From the NCBI GenBank assembly GCA_048941015.1, contig JBHLNZ010000099.1, forward strand, positions 1 to 10,006: a stretch of DNA of 10,006 bases. The letters run 5' to 3'. Under the pieces are notes generated by a model. It saw only the letters and a program-made list of their open reading frames with translations, made no database searches and was not told where the DNA came from. Below are positions 1 to 10,006 of this stretch, in pieces. Position 1 is the first letter of the stretch, and every line of letters begins with the position of its first letter. The stretch comes from Promethearchaeota archaeon (lineage in GTDB: Archaea; Asgardarchaeota; Lokiarchaeia; Sigyniarchaeales; SOKP01). The position numbers and the translations under genes were made by a program.

Positions 1-1301
<1,301 letters not shown>

Positions 1302-1338
1302 TCAATTTAATATGAATCTATGAAAAATTTATTCTTAA

Positions 1339-2340
1339 TTACTTTTTAAGTAAGTTTTTGGCAACTTCGAAAGCATATTTATAATCGAATATTTTTAACC
1401 CCTTTGTATTAGCTGCTTCTTTAAGTATTTGAGCTTCTGAATCAGCTTTAAGTTTACCAAGAGCTAATGCCCCTATTGCAAAAATTCCAGGAAAAATCTC
1501 TTCATTCTTATACTTTGGTTTTATTCCTTCAATTCCATATGGAGGTACTAAATTTATATCAACAATTATTTTTTTTCCTTTTAATTTTTTAATAGATTCT
1601 TCTGATAAAATCTCTACTCCCGCTGCGGCTAAACACCAAATTATGTCAGCATCCTTACAAATATTTAACCTCTGTTCAGGATAAGGAGCAAAAATTCCTT
1701 TAATTTCGTTCGAATCTTGTTTAGCCTCATCACTTAATTCTTTTGCTAGATTACTAATAAATTTTTCATTTGATTTATCCCATGTTTCCACAATATAAGC
1801 TTTACAATGGTTTTTTGATGCTAGGACGGCTGCAATCCTTGCAACAGGCCCTGCTCCAAATATAACTACTTTTTTTCCTTCAATATTTGTAATATCATGC
1901 TTTTTGTTTAAAATGTCAATAGTCATTGCCACAACAGCAGAAGCAGTAGTATGAGATCCTCTGGGATCGATTATCACTGGACATTCGAAAGGCGGTATTA
2001 ATGATTTAATTACTTCTTTCGCAATTTTTTCTCCTTCATTAACATTTGATCCTCCTATGAAAAAAGTTGTGGGTGCATTTGGTTTACGTGAAAATATTGC
2101 ATCTTGAACTAGTTTTGGGACATACTGAGCACTCATTTTGCTAACTGGGACTACAATGTCAAAACCTGCATCATATGCCATATTAATATCAAATGGTGAA
2201 GCATTCTCATCTGTATCGAAAAAGTAGCAGATCTTATCCGTTGTATCTTTTTTTTTTATTATAATTGGTGAAAGTTCAATAATTGATTTTTTACCAAGTA
2301 TGTTTTCAATTATTGTTTCTGTCTTATTATTTTGGACCAT
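1339..2340 (-). CDS. mtdB: NAD(P)-dependent methylene-tetrahydromethanopterin (or -H4F) dehydrogenase, MtdA/MtdB family
   Basis: SPFDINMAYDAG, LVQDAIFSR, FIGG, DPRGSHTTASAVVA, Rossmann FGAGPV, AAAGVEIL, DINLVPPYGIEGI and GALALGKLK match MtdA/MtdB motifs in order. MtdA versus MtdB is not resolved by eye. Confidence 0.85.
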   Translation of the reverse strand: MVQNNKTETIIENILGKKSIIELSPIIIKKKDTTDKICYFFDTDENASPFDINMAYDAGFDIVVPVSKMSAQYVPKLVQDAIFSRKPNAPTTFFIGGSNVNEGEKIAKEVIKSLIPPFECPVIIDPRGSHTTASAVVAMTIDILNKKHDITNIEGKKVVIFGAGPVARIAAVLASKNHCKAYIVETWDKSNEKFISNLAKELSDEAKQDSNEIKGIFAPYPEQRLNICKDADIIWCLAAAGVEILSEESIKKLKGKKIIVDINLVPPYGIEGIKPKYKNEEIFPGIFAIGALALGKLKADSEAQILKEAANTKGLKIFDYKYAFEVAKNLLKK

Positions 2341-2384
2341 TTCTTATCTCACTTCCTTATTTTTTATAATTTTATAAATAAAAT

Positions 2385-3098
2385 TTATTTAATTGTATCA
2401 ATTTCAACCTCTTTTTCTAATTCCTCGGTTTTGATAACCCTTTTAATTTTTACTTGTTCAGTTTCAACTCCAAGTTCTTCAGCTAATTTTTCAAGACCAT
2501 CAAAATGTCTTAAATCGCAAATAAATAGTGCTTTTAATTTTTTACCTTCTGCATTTTTAGCGAGATTCAAAATATTCATCATCATCCACGCTTCTCTTAT
2601 TTTATATCTGACTTCATCTTCTTGAGAATTATAATCTTTTTGTAAATATTCTTTCCATAAGATTAATCGTTGAAAAAGTTCGTCATCCTTGGGAATATGA
2701 CCATTTTTTTCAACTATTCCTTTTATACGATCTTCCAATTTTTGCAACATAGTTCTATGTTCATCTAAAGCCGCTGAAAGATAATATTCTGCATTTTCTG
2801 AAATATCCGCATGTTTGAAAGGAATCCCCTTCTGATCGAAAAGCTTTTTTATTGGATCATTTGAATTATAAGGCCAGTAATTTGGTTTTTCTTCTAAAGC
2901 AAGATTTGGTTTATATCTCTCTATAATTGTGTCAATTAGTTCTAAATATTCTTTTGAAATTAGAAGTAGGTTCCATACCAAATCTTCCTTTTTTTCTTGG
3001 GGTATTTCAAACCACCAATCAATTGAAAATTCACTTTCGATCATTATTAATTTTAAAATTTTTTCTTTTAATGGTTTTAATTCTAAAACTTCAGGCAT
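2385..3098 (-). CDS. Hypothetical protein, possibly TraB/GumN/Tiki (EreA/ChaN-like) superfamily
   Basis: 237-aa ORF with GAGGGG RBS. YKPNLALEE, a helical insert, and REAWMMMNI...LFICDLRHFDGLEKLAEELG resemble the TraB/GumN P-x-x-h-x-x-E and R...h-h-h-G-x-x-H-x-x-G-L motifs. The CDS is solid; the family call is tentative. Confidence 0.75.
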   Translation of the reverse strand: MPEVLELKPLKEKILKLIMIESEFSIDWWFEIPQEKKEDLVWNLLLISKEYLELIDTIIERYKPNLALEEKPNYWPYNSNDPIKKLFDQKGIPFKHADISENAEYYLSAALDEHRTMLQKLEDRIKGIVEKNGHIPKDDELFQRLILWKEYLQKDYNSQEDEVRYKIREAWMMMNILNLAKNAEGKKLKALFICDLRHFDGLEKLAEELGVETEQVKIKRVIKTEELEKEVEIDTIK

Positions 3099-3123
3099 TT
3101 TTATTTTCCCCTCATTAAATTAT

Positions 3124-3747
3124 TTAAAATATTATATTTTGAACAGTGTGTTTTTTATTATAAGATATGACTTTTACCCCTAAGTCTCTCAAGTTCTCAG
3201 TAACTTGAGGACAAATATCTTCACATATATCTTCCTGAATAAAGTGTATAAAAGATATTGTTTCAGTATAAATTTTACAATTACGCGCTAAATCTAACAT
3301 TTTTTTAACAATCCATTGTGGTCTCAATTTTAAACTCAAAAATATCTCTTTTTCTTGAATTTCTTCTGCTAGCATGTCAATCCAATTGCGTAATGAAATC
3401 ATCTTATATGATTCTTTATCATCTTCCTTCTCATACTCTTCATATAATTCATTCAATAATTCTTGTTTGTCTAAAATCTCTTCATATAAATAGCCCATTG
3501 CAAATTCTGGAATATCTACTTGATAATAAGGAATTTTAAGTTCATCTAATAACTGTGCAAATGATGTTTTACTAAATTCATTCAAATTTACCTGAAAATC
3601 TACGGTCACAAAATTGATATTCTTTCTTTTTAAAAACTCCTTCAATTTTGGGATATCAGGGTTCTGAAAGTATTTAATATTTTCTTTTGAAGTCATATAT
3701 GAGACAATTCTCTTATTTTTTATTGGCTTTAATTCCAATACTTCCAT
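3124..3747 (-). CDS. Hypothetical protein, diverged paralog of 2385-3098
   Basis: 207-aa ORF with GAGGTG RBS (3762-3757). Shares EVLELKP, IP----DI, W---L, R--W----L-LA-N and LGV with its neighbour. Confidence 0.8.
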   Translation of the reverse strand: MEVLELKPIKNKRIVSYMTSKENIKYFQNPDIPKLKEFLKRKNINFVTVDFQVNLNEFSKTSFAQLLDELKIPYYQVDIPEFAMGYLYEEILDKQELLNELYEEYEKEDDKESYKMISLRNWIDMLAEEIQEKEIFLSLKLRPQWIVKKMLDLARNCKIYTETISFIHFIQEDICEDICPQVTENLRDLGVKVISYNKKHTVQNIIF

Positions 3748-3856
3748 TCTTTTTTACACCTCTCTGCCTTCTATTTTTAAATTGATTTTATTTACCTGAG
3801 TAAAAGATCAAATAGCCAAAATATAAAGAATTTGACAAGAAAATTTTTGGAAAAAT

Positions 3857-3872
3857 TGATAATAATTATTGT
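3857..3872. promoter_or_regulatory. Operator-like box A (imperfect palindrome)
   Basis: TGATAATAATTATTGT. The core GATAATAA|TTATTGTC (3858-3873) pairs at 7 of 8 positions, and the box is 14/16 identical to the reverse complement of box B. Confidence 0.45.
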
Positions 3873-3964
3873 CTTTTTCTAGATCTCAACTAATTATATT
3901 ATTATACTGAAATTGAACATCTAATTACTGACCATGTAAATTGAGTGATCGAAAATAGACAAGA

Positions 3965-3972
3965 TTTATATA
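3965..3972 (+). promoter_or_regulatory. Putative archaeal TATA box for the HTH-hdrA-mvh operon
   Basis: TTTATATA preceded by a purine-rich BRE-like stretch (GAAAATAGACAAGA), about 100 bp upstream of the start at 4072. The AT-rich background limits specificity. Confidence 0.45.
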
Positions 3973-3977
3973 ATCGT

Positions 3978-3993
3978 ACAATAATATTTATCA
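3978..3993. promoter_or_regulatory. Operator-like box B (inverted copy of box A)
   Basis: ACAATAATATTTATCA (reverse complement TGATAAATATTATTGT), immediately downstream of the putative TATA box. Confidence 0.45.
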
Positions 3994-4071
3994 TGAAGAA
4001 AAAAAAAATTGTCAAAAATTAACTTTTAACAAATAAAATATTAATTAGAAAAAAGGAAGGTTTGAATAAAA

Positions 4072-6618
4072 TTGGATGTATATTCAATCTTGTCTCATCC
4101 TTTTAGAAGAAAAATTTTACTTATACTTGAAAAAGAAGGGTATATCCCTTACACTGATTTAATGGAAAAGCTTGGACTTGATGCAACTGGTCAATTAAAT
4201 TTTCACTTAAAAAAACTGGGCACCTTAATAAGCAAAGACAAAAAATCCTATTATTTAACCGAAGATGGTAAAATTATTTTAAGATTAATGAATCTAAATA
4301 AACGTATTTTATCAGGGGAAAAAATTGAATACCTAGATAAAAAAGGAAGTGAAATAAATAGGATAGGCGTAATAATCTGTAATTGTAACACTGAAATTTC
4401 AAATGTTATTAATATAAATGCCCTTCAAAATTATATTGAAAAAATAAATAATGTAGTTTCTGTTAAAATTTTTAATAATTTATGTTTAGAACGCAATTTT
4501 GAAAAAATCACAAATTGGATTAAAGAAAATTTTTTAAATAAAATAGTAATCGCAGCATGCTCTCCAAAAACTCATCAACATATCTTTGAAAGAATTTTTC
4601 AAGATGCAATTGATCGTGTAAATATTGAAATTGCTAATTTAAGAGAACAATGTTGTTGGGTTCATAATTTTAGTGAAAAGCAATATGATCCCCTCTTTAC
4701 CTTAAAGAAAGCACAGTTATTAATTGAAGCTGCTGTAGAAAGAGTAGCTCTTCAAAAAGAAATTAAAGTTAAAACAGTTGAAGTTGAAAAAAGCTGTGCA
4801 ATATTGGGAGGGGGAATTGCTGGAATGTCGTTGGCTTTAAACTTGTCAAGAACGGGAATAAAAGTCTATCTTATAGAAAAGTCCCCTACTCTAGGGGGAA
4901 AAGTCGCACGTTGGCATAGGATTTCAGATATGGGTGATTGTTCTATTTGCTTTATTTCAGAATTAATTGGAGAGATTGCTAAAGAAAAAAATATTGAAAT
5001 TTTAACTAATACTGAAATTGAGAATGTTTCAGGAGAAGTAGGAAATTTTGTTATTGATTTAAATAAAAAACCTCGTTATATCGATGAAAAAAAGTGTACT
5101 GGTTGTAAACAATGTATTGATATATGTGGTAAAGAAAAAGTTAATCAATTTGAATTTAATTTGAATAGAAGAAAAGTAATATATCTCCCTTTCCAAAATG
5201 CTTATCCTTATATTCCTTTAATTGATGAAAATGACGTCAATAATTGCCTTAATTGTAGAATTTGTGAGCGTGCATGTATTAATCAAGCAATAGATTTAAC
5301 TCAAAAACCTGAAAATATAAAAATAAAAGTTGGAGCAAAGGTAATCGCAATTGGTGCCGATCTTTATCCTGACTTAGATGAATATCAATATAATCCTCAA
5401 AACAATATAATTACTTCTGCTGAATTTGAAAGAATTTTATCCTCGGATGGAATTACTGAAGGAAAGCTAATTAGACTTTCAGATGGAAAAGTAGTTAAAA
5501 CTGTATCTATAATACAAGAAGTAGGCTCTAATAGTTATCAATGCGAGTACATGGACTTATTAGCCAAAAAGTACATTAATGAAATAAAGATAAAAAATCC
5601 CAATTGCGAAGTAAATGTATTTTATGATTTAAGTAAGTTGAAAGAAAAAAATGAGCTTTTACTAAAATCTACACATCCACGATATCTTTATGCTAATAAC
5701 GTTTCAATAGAAATAAGAGAAGATAATAATTATATCATAGCAGATTCTATAGAATTTCCAAGTGATTTAATTATTTTAAACGTTAAGTTGCAGCCCAACA
5801 AAGATTTAAAGCATCTTAGAAAAATTATGGATTTCACTCTTGATGAAAACGGTTTTATGAGTGAGGAAACATTAGCTTCTGGTATTTTTGGGGTTGGGAC
5901 TATATTTGGACCATTAAATTATCAATCTACAATATCTACTGCTAATAATGTAGCTCTTAAAATTATTTCACAACTTTCAAACGACTTTTTAAAATCTGAA
6001 TTCACAGGGATAGAAATCAATGAAGAAAAATGTGGATTATGCGGTCTTTGCATTCAATCTTGTCCTTTTGGCGCAATAAGTATTGAATCAGAAAAAATTA
6101 GCATTGATAAGTTTAAATGTAAAGGATGTGGAACTTGTGTTAGCGTTTGTCCTACGAGTGCAATTGAAATGAACATTGATACTTCACAAAAAATATTTAA
6201 AACAATCGAAATTTTCGCAAAATATAATAGAAACCCCAAAATACTTGCTTTTTGCTGTCAATCTTGTGGTTATGCAGCTGCTGATGATGCTGGCTTAAAA
6301 AAGATTCTCTATTCTCCAAATATGTTCATAATTAGAGTTCCTTGTACTGGAAGGGTAGATGCAAATTTCATTTTGAAAGCTTTAGAGGTAGGTTTTGATG
6401 GAGTAATGATTATTGGTTGCAATAAAGACTCTTGTAGATATATAGACGGAATCCAGAAAGTGCAAAGGAAAGTGAGATTATTAAAAAAGCTTTTAGGTCC
6501 AAAAATAGGCAATCGAATTATAGTTAAAAATTTAAATGCCGTAGAGGGTCATAAGTTTGCTAAGATTACAAACAAATTTTATAATATTTTAATGGAGGAA
6601 ATTAAAAATGAAACTTAA
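4072..6618 (+). CDS. hdrA: Fusion protein: ArsR-like winged HTH + divergent HdrA-like flavo-Fe-S protein + MvhD [2Fe-2S] domain
   Basis: aa 1-~80: LSHPFRRKILLIL...YTDLMEKLGL..TGQLNFHLKKL...YYLTEDG (wHTH). From nt 4360, HdrA motifs: RIGVIICNC, VIAACSP, ANLREQCCWVH, GGGIAG, EKSPTLGG, DCSIC, an inserted 2x CxxCxxCxxxC ferredoxin, EFERIL, and a C-terminal 2x CxxCxxCxxxCP. From nt 6238, MvhD motifs: KILAFCCQSCGYAAAD, IIRVPCTGRVD, DGVMIIGC---SCRY. TTG start. Confidence 0.93.
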   Translation: MDVYSILSHPFRRKILLILEKEGYIPYTDLMEKLGLDATGQLNFHLKKLGTLISKDKKSYYLTEDGKIILRLMNLNKRILSGEKIEYLDKKGSEINRIGVIICNCNTEISNVININALQNYIEKINNVVSVKIFNNLCLERNFEKITNWIKENFLNKIVIAACSPKTHQHIFERIFQDAIDRVNIEIANLREQCCWVHNFSEKQYDPLFTLKKAQLLIEAAVERVALQKEIKVKTVEVEKSCAILGGGIAGMSLALNLSRTGIKVYLIEKSPTLGGKVARWHRISDMGDCSICFISELIGEIAKEKNIEILTNTEIENVSGEVGNFVIDLNKKPRYIDEKKCTGCKQCIDICGKEKVNQFEFNLNRRKVIYLPFQNAYPYIPLIDENDVNNCLNCRICERACINQAIDLTQKPENIKIKVGAKVIAIGADLYPDLDEYQYNPQNNIITSAEFERILSSDGITEGKLIRLSDGKVVKTVSIIQEVGSNSYQCEYMDLLAKKYINEIKIKNPNCEVNVFYDLSKLKEKNELLLKSTHPRYLYANNVSIEIREDNNYIIADSIEFPSDLIILNVKLQPNKDLKHLRKIMDFTLDENGFMSEETLASGIFGVGTIFGPLNYQSTISTANNVALKIISQLSNDFLKSEFTGIEINEEKCGLCGLCIQSCPFGAISIESEKISIDKFKCKGCGTCVSVCPTSAIEMNIDTSQKIFKTIEIFAKYNRNPKILAFCCQSCGYAAADDAGLKKILYSPNMFIIRVPCTGRVDANFILKALEVGFDGVMIIGCNKDSCRYIDGIQKVQRKVRLLKKLLGPKIGNRIIVKNLNAVEGHKFAKITNKFYNILMEEIKNET

Positions 6619-7366
6619 ATTTCTTATAACTTCGTTAACATCTTGTAGTGGGTGTATTTCAGCATTGATGTCTTTAGATATCTTTCCTCAATTTATTGAA
6701 AGAACAAAACTAATTTACTTCCCTTTTATTTATGATGAATTAGATATAAATGATTGTGAGATTGCTTTAATTGAAGGATGTGTTTCTGAAAGTAAGCAAA
6801 TTGAATATCTTAAAAAAATAAGAAAATATGCTAAGAAAGTATATGCTTTAGGAACTTGTGCTGCTTTTGGAGGAATTTTAAGTCTTTCCAAAAAAAAGGA
6901 AGCACTCCCAATTTCAAAGTTTATTGAAGTTGACAATATCATTCCCGGTTGTCCTCCTCCTTCAACACTATTTGGTAACTGCTTAATTAATTTGGTAGAA
7001 AACAAGGATTTTAAGTTATCAACAAAAAATTTATGCTTTGACTGTCCTTATAAAAAGGATTTAGAGAAAAATTCAGAAATGTTGATTACAAAATTAAATC
7101 CTAACTATAATGAGATCGAAGATATTGGTAAGAATTCGTCTTGCTTTTTAAATCGTGGAATATTATGTTTAGGCCCAATTACACGTGAGGGCTGTGATCA
7201 CCAATGTATAAATCAAAATATGCCTTGTGAAGGATGTCTGGGGCCAGTTTCAAAAGACTTTACTTCTAATATGGTAAATTTTTTGAGTATGGTTAAGATT
7301 TCTAAAGATTTGGAGAGATATAAGGGCATTTATTACAGATTTTCTAAACCCATTTTAAAGAGGTGA
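6608..7366 (+). CDS. mvhG: [NiFe]-hydrogenase small subunit, MvhG-like (group 3c)
   Basis: SCSGC, EGCV, GTCAAFGGI, IPGCPP, CFDCP, CFLNRGILCLGPITREGC---C-----PCEGCLGP, YYRFS. GGAGG RBS at 6594-6598; overlaps the upstream gene by 11 nt. Confidence 0.92.
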   Translation: MKLKFLITSLTSCSGCISALMSLDIFPQFIERTKLIYFPFIYDELDINDCEIALIEGCVSESKQIEYLKKIRKYAKKVYALGTCAAFGGILSLSKKKEALPISKFIEVDNIIPGCPPPSTLFGNCLINLVENKDFKLSTKNLCFDCPYKKDLEKNSEMLITKLNPNYNEIEDIGKNSSCFLNRGILCLGPITREGCDHQCINQNMPCEGCLGPVSKDFTSNMVNFLSMVKISKDLERYKGIYYRFSKPILKR

Positions 7367-7371
7367 TATTT

Positions 7372-8673
7372 TTGGAAAAAGTAATTGAGGTATGTTCTAG
7401 AATTGAGGGTTATGCAGAAATTAATCTTTTTTTAAATAATGAACAAATTAAATATATTAAATTAGATACTACGGTTTTTCGTGGTTTTGAAACCATTTTA
7501 AAAGGCAAAAAGTTAATTGATATTCCAAAAATAGTATCACGAATATGTGGACTATGTCATGCCTCCCAAACTATTGCAAGTTGTAAAGCTATTGAGGATT
7601 TATATAATATTTTTCCAAGTCCTCAAGCAGTATTATTAAGAAAACTCTTATTATCCGCAGAATTAATAAAGTCACATTGTTTGCATTTCTTTTTCCAAAC
7701 TTTGCCAGATATGTTAAATATCTTCAATTTATGGAATACAACTAATGAAAACACTAACATTCTTCAATTTGATACTCAAACAACGACCATTATATATGAT
7801 TTAATTAAATTAGCTACAAAAATAAATGAAAGTTTTGGCGGAAGGGTTTTGCATTTAATTACACCGATTCCAGGAGGAATTGTGTATAAACCTAGTCAAA
7901 GAAATATAACATTATCTCAAAAAGCGCTTCAAAAAGCATTATTTAATTCAGAATATCTTATTAAGAAATTTATAAATCTCTTTTCAAAATTTAAGCCCCC
8001 TGAAGAATATAATCTAAATAGAATTTCATATTTAGGATTAACAAATAATGGAAGCTATGATAGATATAATGGGCTTTTAAGATTAAAACAAATTGATAAG
8101 CAACTTAAAGATTTTCCTATAAACCTTTATTCAGATTATTTTGATAAAGATGAAGAAATTATTGGGATTCAATTTAAATCTGAAATTGGAGAGAGGGTAT
8201 TGACAGGCCCAATATCAAGGTATAAAATAAACGAAAAATATAACCATGGGACTATTAAAGATTATCTTAATCAATTTGATAATCAATGGAAAAATTCTAT
8301 TCTATTTTGGAATTTTCTACAATTAATAGAAATAAATTCTGAAATTATGGAAAGCATTGAGATTTTAAAAGATAAGAAATTGAATAATAATAGTACTTAT
8401 CCTGTTCTAAAATCTTTAAAGAGCAAGGATGGAATTGGTGCTGTAGAAGCTCCAAGAGGAACATTAATACATCACTATCATCTGAATGAAAGTAATTTAG
8501 TAGATAGTGTGAAATTATATGTAGCAACTGAAATTAACATGCCTTTAATCAATGCAATGATTACCCATTATGCTCAGAAGTTGTATGAAAAGGAAAGTGT
8601 AGATACAGTTATGAAAAAAATCCAGATTATGATAAGATCATTTGATCCGTGTATATCTTGTGCAACTCATTAA
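7372..8673 (+). CDS. mvhA: [NiFe]-hydrogenase large subunit, MvhA-like, without a C-terminal extension
   Basis: SRIEG, RGFE, L1 RICGLCHASQ, SH--HFF, VEAPRGTLIHHY, VAT--N, and L2 RSFDPCISCATH followed by stop. The start is probably TTG 7372, because GAGGTGA (7360-7366) is a strong archaeal RBS 5 nt upstream; the track's GTG 7363 lies inside that RBS. Confidence 0.94.
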   Translation: MEKVIEVCSRIEGYAEINLFLNNEQIKYIKLDTTVFRGFETILKGKKLIDIPKIVSRICGLCHASQTIASCKAIEDLYNIFPSPQAVLLRKLLLSAELIKSHCLHFFFQTLPDMLNIFNLWNTTNENTNILQFDTQTTTIIYDLIKLATKINESFGGRVLHLITPIPGGIVYKPSQRNITLSQKALQKALFNSEYLIKKFINLFSKFKPPEEYNLNRISYLGLTNNGSYDRYNGLLRLKQIDKQLKDFPINLYSDYFDKDEEIIGIQFKSEIGERVLTGPISRYKINEKYNHGTIKDYLNQFDNQWKNSILFWNFLQLIEINSEIMESIEILKDKKLNNNSTYPVLKSLKSKDGIGAVEAPRGTLIHHYHLNESNLVDSVKLYVATEINMPLINAMITHYAQKLYEKESVDTVMKKIQIMIRSFDPCISCATH

Positions 8674-8726
8674 AATTTTAATTTAAAATGTAAAATCTTA
8701 AATAAAAATGACAATGGAGGCTTTAA

Positions 8727-9761
8727 TTGGTGAATTTTTTTAATACAGATAATAATAAGGAAAATAGATCCAAAGAATTATGTGATATTTATTTACTTTA
8801 TTTTGATGAAACTCTTGGGCATATCCCTTTACTTATCCATCCAAATGATCAAGATAAAAATGATGAGGACATAATGCGCATCATAACATTTCATCCCATC
8901 TGGTTTCTGAATGAAAAAGAACAAGACTCTCTTAATCGTATAGACTTAGAATATAACAAAAAGATGTATTTTGCTAAAAAGTTCTATATAAAATCAGATA
9001 GGAAAAAAAGAAGAGCGGGACTTGAACAATCTGATATTGAGAAAATCGTTTTAATTATTGTTTTACCAACGGATTTAGACATTTTTGGGGGCGCACTCTT
9101 AAATAAAATGACAGAAATTATTAAGATCGAATACCAAAATACTTTATTCAAAATTATTGAATCTGAAATCGCAAAGCTTGAGGTTTTAAAAACAGTAAAA
9201 TTAAAAGAAATTATTAATAACGGAAATCTGGAACGAAATAAGCTAAAAAATACAATTACTATTTTTTGTAAAGAATATTTCTCATCGGTTATTAAACAGA
9301 AAGATGCAACAACTATTAAACTGCAAAAAGCGATTTCTTTTCTCTTATTAAAAGGAATTGATATTAGTTATATTACTAGTGATATAGAAAAGAATAATTT
9401 TTCAAATATCAGATTATTTGATCCAGAGAAAAAAACTCCTAACTTATTACAATCAAAAGAAAATTTTAAAATTTTAAACCAGACTATTGATGCGGATTTT
9501 GGGGAGTTTGAAATCTTAGTAAAAAATCAAAGTTCCAAGGATTTAATTAATGTTTATATAAAAATCACTTACGTTAAAGATTTTTTTGAAAAAGAAATTC
9601 TAAGTGAAAAAGTAGAAAAGTGGTTGTCACAGGAAGAATTAATGTTTATTACTCCTATCGTTCCTGGAATTTTAAATTACTTGTTTTTAGTTACAGAAGA
9701 AGATCAAAAGAAAATTAAATTTTCAAGAAAAATTAATTTTGAGAAAATAAGTATGATTTAG
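8727..9761 (+). CDS. Hypothetical protein: putative N-terminal longin/uDENN-like domain and C-terminal Ig/CARDB-like beta domain
   Basis: 344 aa, GGAGG RBS at 8716-8720. IYLLYFDETLGHIPLLIHP resembles the uDENN/longin F-D-x-x-x-G-x-x-x-x-x-x-P start. FEILVKNQSSKDLINVYIKITY resembles Ig-like strands. Domain calls are tentative. Confidence 0.75.
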   Translation: MVNFFNTDNNKENRSKELCDIYLLYFDETLGHIPLLIHPNDQDKNDEDIMRIITFHPIWFLNEKEQDSLNRIDLEYNKKMYFAKKFYIKSDRKKRRAGLEQSDIEKIVLIIVLPTDLDIFGGALLNKMTEIIKIEYQNTLFKIIESEIAKLEVLKTVKLKEIINNGNLERNKLKNTITIFCKEYFSSVIKQKDATTIKLQKAISFLLLKGIDISYITSDIEKNNFSNIRLFDPEKKTPNLLQSKENFKILNQTIDADFGEFEILVKNQSSKDLINVYIKITYVKDFFEKEILSEKVEKWLSQEELMFITPIVPGILNYLFLVTEEDQKKIKFSRKINFEKISMI

Positions 9762-10006
9762 TATTGGAATTCTCTATTTCTTAATTTCGATACCAAATGC
9801 CCTCTGCTAATTAATTGAATTCCAAATTGGGAGGAATAATCACGAGAAAAATCTGTAGCGATATTACATACCATAATACCTCCGTCAATATTAGGAATAT
9901 CTACGCATGCTTTATGTAATTGTCTTAGTTGAGTTATTGAAATTTCTCGCTTCCAATCACGAATAAATATTCCAAACCTACCATTTTTTCCATTATTTAC
10001 AATAGC
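9758..10006 (-). CDS. C-terminal part of an Mrr-like restriction-endonuclease-fold protein (probably catalytically degenerate)
   Basis: Manual translation: AIVNNGKNGRFGIFIRDWKREISITQLRQLHKACVDIPNIDGGIMVCNIATDFSRDYSSQFGIQLISRGHLVSKLRNREFQY*. The pattern resembles the Mrr_cat C-terminal half. Its stop (9760-9758) overlaps the stop of the convergent gene. Confidence 0.65.
   Translation of the reverse strand, partial: AIVNNGKNGRFGIFIRDWKREISITQLRQLHKACVDIPNIDGGIMVCNIATDFSRDYSSQFGIQLISRGHLVSKLRNREFQY

Follow-up and report, generated by a model that had tools for sequence, protein, structure and literature searches.

Glutamine in place of the conserved L1 histidine as a clade-wide trait, and a probable tuning substitution, of Mvh-like [NiFe] hydrogenases in Asgard archaea

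We examined a 10,006-nucleotide stretch of DNA from a Promethearchaeota archaeon (contig JBHLNZ010000099.1 of the assembly GCA_048941015.1, positions 1 to 10,006 of the forward strand; hereafter called the window), which encodes an MvhA-like large subunit of [NiFe] hydrogenase with glutamine, Gln69, at the site of the conserved histidine in the nickel-binding L1 motif. Far from being peculiar to the gene in the window, this glutamine is shared across the clade to which the main [NiFe] hydrogenase of this Asgard family belongs. With moderate confidence, furthermore, we take Gln69 to be a selected and lineage-defining substitution in the second coordination sphere, by which the active site of an H2-converting module in an Asgard-specific, Mvh-like clade of group 3 would be tuned, and not to be a marker of sensing. 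In a preliminary description of the window, the same glutamine was taken as convergence of a group 3c scaffold on a low-activity sensory role, like that of the regulatory hydrogenases HoxC and HupV; Gln alone, however, does not show that this enzyme functions as a sensor.

Translation of the window confirmed that the L1 motif reads RICGLCHASQ (cga ata tgt gga cta tgt cat gcc tcc caa; R60-I-C62-G-L-C65-H66-A-S-Q69) and that Gln69 is encoded by CAA, at the positions listed in Table 1. As had been stated, His is indeed the standard residue at this site: in HMMER alignments, MvhA chains of solved structure have His opposite Gln69 (RICGICDVQH in 9sw2_F, RICGICQVAH in 5odc_F, and RICGICPVSH in 7t2r_D), and so do 119 group-3 representatives. 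The histidine of the CxxCxxxH pattern in PF00374 large subunits is thus replaced with Gln here and likewise in 129 members of the clade. Also, the L1 motif given earlier for HoxC of Cupriavidus necator (C60/C63/Q67) was verified by reading RVCGICSVSQ, with C60, I62, C63, and Q67, from the C. necator plasmid pHG1 (L003:17976-19433). The protein in the window belongs to PF00374 (E=2.3e-28), and its best solved relatives are the MvhA chains, which were matched over the full length with HMMER (E ~1e-46). The nickel ligands C62/C65/C430/C433, His436, the proton-transfer Glu15 in RxEG, and Arg365 in APRG are all present and invariant in an alignment of 24 sequences (alignment A1), in agreement with the retention of the Glu, the Arg, and the four Ni cysteines noted earlier. 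While the change from RIEGH to RIEGY, to which the preliminary description also pointed, is certainly present, the last position of this motif is variable within the clade (H 99, Q 5, R 4, C 4, Y 2, N 2, S 2, K 1); the change thus carries little weight and was dropped as a meaningful one.

In terms of distribution, the 121 database proteins most similar to the large subunit (48-100% identity) all have Gln at the L1 site but for one (120/121). When the search was widened to the 150 top-ranking representatives of sequences clustered at 50%, Gln was confined to the nearest relatives, and the other group-3 sequences had His except for one small group with Tyr. Overall, the L1 residue was Gln in 129, His in 119, and Tyr in 6 sequences; that is, none of the 119 other group-3 representatives has Gln, and Gln is retained in 129 of the 131 members (~98%) of a well-supported Asgard clade. 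When 400 Asgard genomes were searched, a large subunit at clade-level similarity was found in ~91 of the 135 genomes in the family of the source organism. The sequences with Tyr for the L1 His (RICG[IL]C..[AS]Y; P0185, P0232, P0237, P0238, P0245, and P0258) constitute, in their own right, another exception to the rule of an invariant His.

A maximum-likelihood tree was made of 110 rows (quick search in IQ-TREE with LG+G4; no PDB sequences among the rows), and branch support is given as the Shimodaira-Hasegawa-like approximate likelihood ratio test (SH-aLRT). The Gln sequences form one clade of 28 rows (SH-aLRT 99), which is nested in an Asgard-centered clade of 39 rows (SH-aLRT 99) separate from the classic MvhA-like group with PVSH and 24-residue tails. 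The successive sisters of the Gln clade carry His: namely, Jordarchaeia with RICGLCSSAH and then a lineage with KICG[VF]C-AAH (e.g., KICGFCSAAH). HoxC falls outside all of the 108 group-3 rows (SH-aLRT 100), and the origin of Gln in the Asgard clade is therefore independent of group 2b. Five state changes are needed to account for His, Gln, and Tyr on the whole tree: Gln was gained at the base of the clade and, independently, in HoxC; Tyr accounts for one change; and the remaining two are those of the sequences within the Gln clade that have His. Of these two, P0024 is deeply nested in the clade and hence a clear reversion to His, while P0126, near the base of the clade, could have His either by reversion or from the ancestor. 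On this tree, Gln is shown to have arisen once in the Asgard clade, from a His-bearing ancestor already equipped with its present partners, namely, a fusion of a winged helix-turn-helix (HTH) domain, HdrA, and MvhD, and the small subunit MvhG. The convergence with the bacterial H2 sensors is thus real at the level of sequence, and in this respect the preliminary description was right; the low-activity sensory role attached to it fared less well, given that Gln is clade-wide and not tied to the HTH domain and that the Gln of a regulatory hydrogenase seems not to take part in sensing (PMC5665086).

Several lines of evidence argue for selection on Gln69. At the corresponding site in 34 related loci, the codons are CAA (31) and CAG (3), and the codons for His are CAC (6) and CAT (2); both Gln codons are hence in use, and Gln is changed to His by a single third-position transversion. 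Near-fixation of Gln among proteins with 30-55% overall identity, with His always one such transversion away, therefore points to selection for Gln. Also, the neighboring residues change together with Gln69. The consensus of the 129 Gln sequences is R-I-C-G-L-C-[H 53% / Y 36%]-A-S-Q, and His or Tyr follows the second L1 Cys in 90% of the Gln-type sequences but in 9% of the His-type ones, where Pro (45%) and Ser (33%) together account for 78%. Gln69 thus co-varies with a residue that can donate a hydrogen bond and lies one helical turn ahead of it (His66 in the window), as well as with Leu64 and Ser68. Furthermore, position 112 is Gln in most Gln-type sequences, whereas it is Leu in the His-type group-3 enzymes. 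As regards a possible gas channel resembling the one in the regulatory hydrogenase, position 64 is Leu in the alignment, but the counterpart of HoxC F110 is Gln and not a bulky hydrophobic residue.

The gene for the large subunit comes last among the catalytic genes of a compact operon, and the module it belongs to looks built for H2 turnover, to judge from the intact Ni cysteines, Glu15, Arg365, ligands for the iron-sulfur (FeS) clusters in MvhG, and the MvhD-HdrA fusion. The cysteine groups of MvhG align with those of 5odc_E. HdrA (residues 92-713) matches 8RVU (3e-111) and is full-length with the motif for flavin adenine dinucleotide, and both HdrA and MvhD align end to end with the methanogen subunits. 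When the source genome (95% complete) was searched with PF00374, PF00346, PF02906, and tblastn, no further hydrogenase, whatever its class, was detected. The Gln-type enzyme is the only hydrogenase also in two relatives, G200 (99% complete) and G240 (92% complete), and HypD is present in 115 of the 135 family genomes. With regard to the bacterial sensors themselves, Roncaroli et al. (2015) reported that the Gln of the regulatory hydrogenase seems not to be involved in H2 sensing (PMC5665086).

As to how Gln69 could act, the L1 His is known to form an N-H...S hydrogen bond to the bridging cysteine, which corresponds to Cys433 here. Gln would form an amide N-H...S bond instead and thereby adjust the electronic structure and redox behavior of the Ni-Fe site, and the co-varying His/Tyr66 may act together with it. 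H2 and the HdrA flavin would exchange electrons via MvhG and MvhD with their FeS ligands intact. Beyond the flavin, however, the module differs from that of methanogens, in which HdrA is connected to HdrC and HdrB through its HA4 [4Fe-4S] cluster. Of the four HA4 cysteines, which form the pattern C...C...CC in classic enzymes, three are gone in the window, as they are across the HTH-HdrA clade, and the following segment is shortened (~5500-5600, HdrA residues ~478-510), so that transfer to HdrBC by the canonical route is unlikely. No hdrBC was found in or adjacent to the operon, either in the window or in the related loci that were fetched; many CCG-domain genes do lie elsewhere in the genome, which has 43 such matches in total. 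Since HdrA lacks HA4 and has no adjacent hdrBC, electrons would probably be exchanged with ferredoxin and not HdrBC. In a simple reading that would fit both the catalytic and the regulatory features, the hydrogenase is non-bifurcating and exerts autoregulation on its operon, with electrons running from ferredoxin through the flavin, MvhD, and MvhG to the NiFe site.

Some observations nonetheless weigh against our preferred reading. First, the operon has features that would fit a regulatory complex: a conserved ArsR-like HTH is attached to HdrA, the large subunit is tail-less as in HoxC, and the HA4 cysteines are lost in every HTH-HdrA examined, including those of the His-type Jordarchaeia sisters. 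Upstream of the HTH-hdrA gene, no 8-mer apart from homopolymers is more frequent than the element TTGTCAAA/TTTGACAA, which was found in 20 of 28 related loci, while ~0.03 would be expected per locus; it is also present in Jordarchaeia as a close inverted pair at -98 and -85. The TTGACAA/TTGTCAA sequences of the window (Table 1) are a candidate for the operator of the fused HTH. Second, searches of the source genome, which is 95% complete, detected none of hypD, hypE, and hypF; without hypD and hypF, maturation of the enzyme in this genome is uncertain, which weakens the argument from a sole hydrogenase. Third, the strong expression of group 3c [NiFe] hydrogenases in cultured Asgard archaea (PMC11216029), such as P. 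syntrophicum MK-D1 and L. ossiferum, would favor a working enzyme here only if those hydrogenases are of the Gln type. Finally, the hydrogen bond and the tuning ascribed to it are borrowed from the established chemistry of other [NiFe] enzymes.

The HTH, the loss of HA4, the lack of an adjacent hdrBC, and the promoter element, nevertheless, say nothing specific on Gln, because all of them are shared by the His-type sisters. The genomic context was sampled in the loci of 40 Asgard genomes and one Jordarchaeia locus; when genome contigs were scanned with alignment A1, the matches listed were almost all distant bacterial or methanogen loci, plus one Jordarchaeia locus. A gene for the HdrA-MvhD fusion was found next to those for MvhG and MvhA in 34 of the 35 Gln-type loci, with the HTH visible in 32; one locus (L113) has no visible fusion gene, and two (L112 and L122) include only a part of it. 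The same operon of HTH-HdrA-MvhD, MvhG, and MvhA was, however, found in all of the seven His-type sister loci, among them L005, L116-L118 (36-38% identity), L120, and L121 (33%). Classic-type loci are different: L123, with a classic 3c enzyme, has HdrA-MvhD without the HTH, and L124 has no HdrA in view. Also, the two His-bearing proteins inside the Gln clade have kept their partners; P0126 is accompanied by DUF7347-HdrA-FlpD and MvhG, and P0024 lies in an operon like that of the window with the same Mpt_N flank, two small open reading frames (ORFs), and downstream ORF. There is therefore no coupling between Gln and the HTH partner. The fusion with the HTH is older and broader than Gln, and Gln can revert with its partners unchanged. 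The co-occurrence of Gln and HTH-HdrA, which the preliminary description suggested for testing, accordingly stands as far as the operon is kept through the clade, but not in the sense that the one implies the other. That description further held that its proposal would fail if Gln were common in ordinary group-3 enzymes or if the closest homologues in the same operon context had His. The former was not observed at all (0/119), and the latter only marginally, given that the close homologues have Gln (120/121) and it is the sisters with the same operon that have His.

These results bear directly on the rival to which we give a small but real chance: namely, the whole complex is a sensor of H2 or redox state, where slow oxidation of H2 would set the reduced flavin/FeS state of HTH-HdrA-MvhD and thereby its binding to the TTGACAA/TTGTCAA operator, in which case Gln would have been acquired convergently for sensing, like that of HoxC and HupV. 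Besides the regulatory features described above, including TTGTCAAA upstream of the operon, Gln69 and the missing C-terminal extension are common to HoxC, the HA4 loss extends across the whole HTH-HdrA clade with no hdrBC adjacent, and the HTH is better conserved within the family (70-90% identity) than the large subunit (44-55%). Against it, Gln is uncoupled from the HTH as shown above, with the His-type sisters having the same promoter element; Gln in the regulatory hydrogenase seems uninvolved in sensing (PMC5665086); and no target hydrogenase was detected in the source genome, nor any kinase or other signaling partner in the operon. Furthermore, a three-cluster relay together with the four ferredoxin-type clusters of HdrA exceeds the needs of a sensor, and an HTH on an enzyme subunit can merely serve for autoregulation. 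The strongest form of this proposal, in which the hydrogenase annotated as MvhADG-HdrABC in many models of Asgard metabolism and eukaryogenesis is a self-contained H2/redox-sensing transcription factor and not a bifurcating enzyme, appears to us similarly unlikely. If true, it would be a second, independently evolved solution for H2 sensing and the first in archaea, in which a tail-less, Gln-type subunit like that of regulatory hydrogenases would reduce the flavin of a DNA-binding HdrA that has no exit to HdrBC and thereby set how far the operators are occupied.

It is still less probable that Gln69 is nearly neutral, with His and Gln being interchangeable and Gln throughout the clade a frozen accident of the founder. 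The two His-bearing members inside the clade, whose operon context is unchanged, and the lack of a reported sensing role for Gln in the regulatory hydrogenase (PMC5665086) are what one would expect in that case; on the other hand, Gln has been kept in 129 of the 131 members in spite of the divergence and the easily accessible His codons described above, and it co-varies with His/Tyr66, Leu64, and Ser68.

The weakest alternative, which we regard as very improbable, is that the operon in the source genome no longer encodes a working hydrogenase, the hyp genes having been lost and the protein, without the NiFe cofactor, serving another role or decaying: this would account for the absence of hypD and hypF, for contig C51, and for G240 and G200, where the Gln-type enzyme is the only hydrogenase and hypD is missing as well, but the operon is intact with all ligands, the branch length (0.099) is close to that of a hyp-bearing sister (0.095), and the genes for hypA, a hypB-like protein, hypC, and a HycI-like protease are present. 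In the closest relative, G261, hypE-hypD-hypF lie at C20:31390-37067. Contig C51 of the source genome joins the left flank of this cluster straight to DNA on another G261 contig, and the hyp cluster is hence not at the C51 locus. Five of the 42 genus genomes lack both hypD and hypF but keep the Gln-type operon, while ~3.3 of the 42 would be expected to miss any given gene by incompleteness; also, hypD and hypF are adjacent in relatives, so that one gap explains both absences. A real loss of hypD and hypF in the source genome is thus possible, but with a count so near the expectation from incompleteness we did not accept their absence as proof of a cofactor-less protein.

In comparison with known systems, the module most resembles MvhAGD-HdrABC of methanogens (group 3c; 5ODC, 9SW2, and 7T2R). 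MvhA has the four Ni cysteines, the Glu, and the Arg in common with the large subunit here, and the partners are alike, with MvhG having three sets of FeS ligands, MvhD, HdrA, and the relay from MvhG through MvhD to HdrA. The differences are the L1 His and a tail of ~24 residues in MvhA, as opposed to Gln and no C-terminal extension here; in HdrA, the fusion to MvhD and to the N-terminal HTH, the loss of the HA4 cysteines, and no adjacent hdrBC; and the position of the large subunit outside the classic 3c clade, in the separate Asgard clade of 39 rows (SH-aLRT 99 in a quick tree with no PDB sequences). The extension that is cleaved by a maturation endopeptidase in group 3c is absent here. All of the close homologues with a readable C-terminus (120/120) end at the terminal His, while the basal Gln lineages keep 5-11 tail residues; the loss of the tail is hence an event separate from, and later than, the gain of Gln. 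We also noticed a gene for a HycI-type maturation endopeptidase in the source genome (G000:C37:3005-3283), yet the only large subunit found there has no tail to cleave.

The likeness to HoxC and HupV (group 2b; HoxBC-HoxJ of C. necator) consists of Gln in L1 (Q67 and Q69, respectively), the end at the terminal His, and the unconserved His of RxEGH (RVEGD in HoxC). Nonetheless, HoxC is remote: tblastn aligned it in only two local segments, 110 and 117 residues long, at 26-30% identity. Regulatory hydrogenases of group 2b are further marked by very low H2 turnover, by Ni-SI and Ni-C as their only states, and by insensitivity to O2. The partner of HoxC is a histidine kinase, whereas here it is HdrA, with neither kinase nor response regulator in the operon and the fused HTH as a possible alternative output. 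Also, HoxC has Phe110 in the gas channel and Ser after the second Cys, as opposed to Gln112 and His/Tyr.

The L1 His of [NiFe] hydrogenases has been reviewed as conserved except in H2 sensors (PMC5665086), and the Gln enzymes described here add to the sensors a second, independent, and very large group. The proteins themselves are known as Asgard group 3c enzymes or new subgroups, and the same kind of cytosolic Mvh-like hydrogenase is represented, in the portions available of those sources, by the HydDB call for Lokiarchaeum GC14_75 (PMC5037454) and subgroups 3e-3l (Appler et al., bioRxiv 10.1101/2024.07.04.601786); the clade here was matched to no named subgroup. Such hydrogenases are labeled MvhADG-HdrABC in metabolic reconstructions. 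The portions available have no word on Gln in L1, on tail loss, on an HTH joined to HdrA, or on the loss of HA4; in the literature searched, we found no mention of an L1 Gln in this Asgard lineage. In Asgard genome papers, the cytosolic hydrogenase under this label serves in arguments for H2-based syntrophy at the origin of eukaryotes. Given the Gln, the missing tail, the loss of HA4, and the fused DNA-binding domain, our results suggest that the label is at least imprecise. The clade is, furthermore, a natural experiment on the L1 hydrogen bond, in which one operon architecture is combined with Gln, with His regained in one or two natural cases, and with the His of the sister lineages.

Table 1. 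Positions of the features discussed (numbering of the window unless a locus is given)
Feature	Position	Strand	Remarks
Promoter region	3831..4016		TTGACAA at 3832-3838 (element 3831-3838) and TTGTCAA at 4009-4015 (element 4009-4016)
Fusion of ArsR-like winged HTH, HdrA, and MvhD	4072..6618	+	HTH 1-90 (DUF7347); HdrA 92-713, without HA4 cysteines; MvhD 721-840
MvhG-like small subunit	6608..7366	+	Cysteine groups of three FeS clusters
MvhA-like [NiFe]-hydrogenase large subunit	7363..8673	+	436 amino acids from GTG start
RIEGY, R13-Y17	7399..7413	+	Glu15 kept; last position variable in the clade
L1 motif RICGLCHASQ	7540..7569	+	C62 and C65, Ni ligands
His66, residue after the second L1 Cys	7558..7560	+	Co-varies with Gln69
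CAA codon, Gln69	7567..7569	+	Aligned to the conserved L1 His of MvhA and Gln67 of HoxC
Gln112 in HFFFQ	7696..7698	+	Aligned to HoxC gas-channel residue F110
L5 motif DPCISCATH	8644..8673	+	Followed at once by TAA stop; no C-terminal extension
Asgard-only ORF, 344 amino acids	8727..9761	+	3' of the large subunit; syntenic in many relatives, 32-84% identity
Second PF00374 homologue	L135:6462-7829, L136:6011-7327, L137:4655-5998		In relatives G135, G250, and G143

With respect to gene boundaries, the database homologues of the large subunit begin three codons further on than the start given in Table 1, at TTG 7372. The winged HTH at the N terminus of the fusion was recognized as DUF7347 (E=3.5e-10), and its nearest structure is 1Y0U. 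No Pfam family was found for the ORF downstream of the large subunit; in structure, it resembles only longin/DENN-like proteins (folliculin and NPRL2/3, for example), and these weakly (TM ~0.4).

Many relatives have a second PF00374 homologue of ~440-456 amino acids with RICGICPVPH as L1, which is often near hypDF and ends with ...LPDPW[LIMV]K. Neither DPCxxC nor DP-stop-xxC was found for it in the 12-kb loci; two of the four Ni ligands hence seem to be missing, and its status as a hydrogenase is doubtful. The source genome has no orthologue of this protein, while the closed genomes of G135 (4.36 Mb) and G143 (4.32 Mb) have this different PF00374 homologue only. Also, the source genome encodes, at G000:C59:13363-15724, a 460-residue protein that looks like a double small subunit (Oxidored_q6). 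Its neighbor is a CCG protein of the HdrB-like kind, and there is no large subunit in the vicinity; the identity of the 460-residue protein is ~41% to a protein of G135 and 64% to one of G261.

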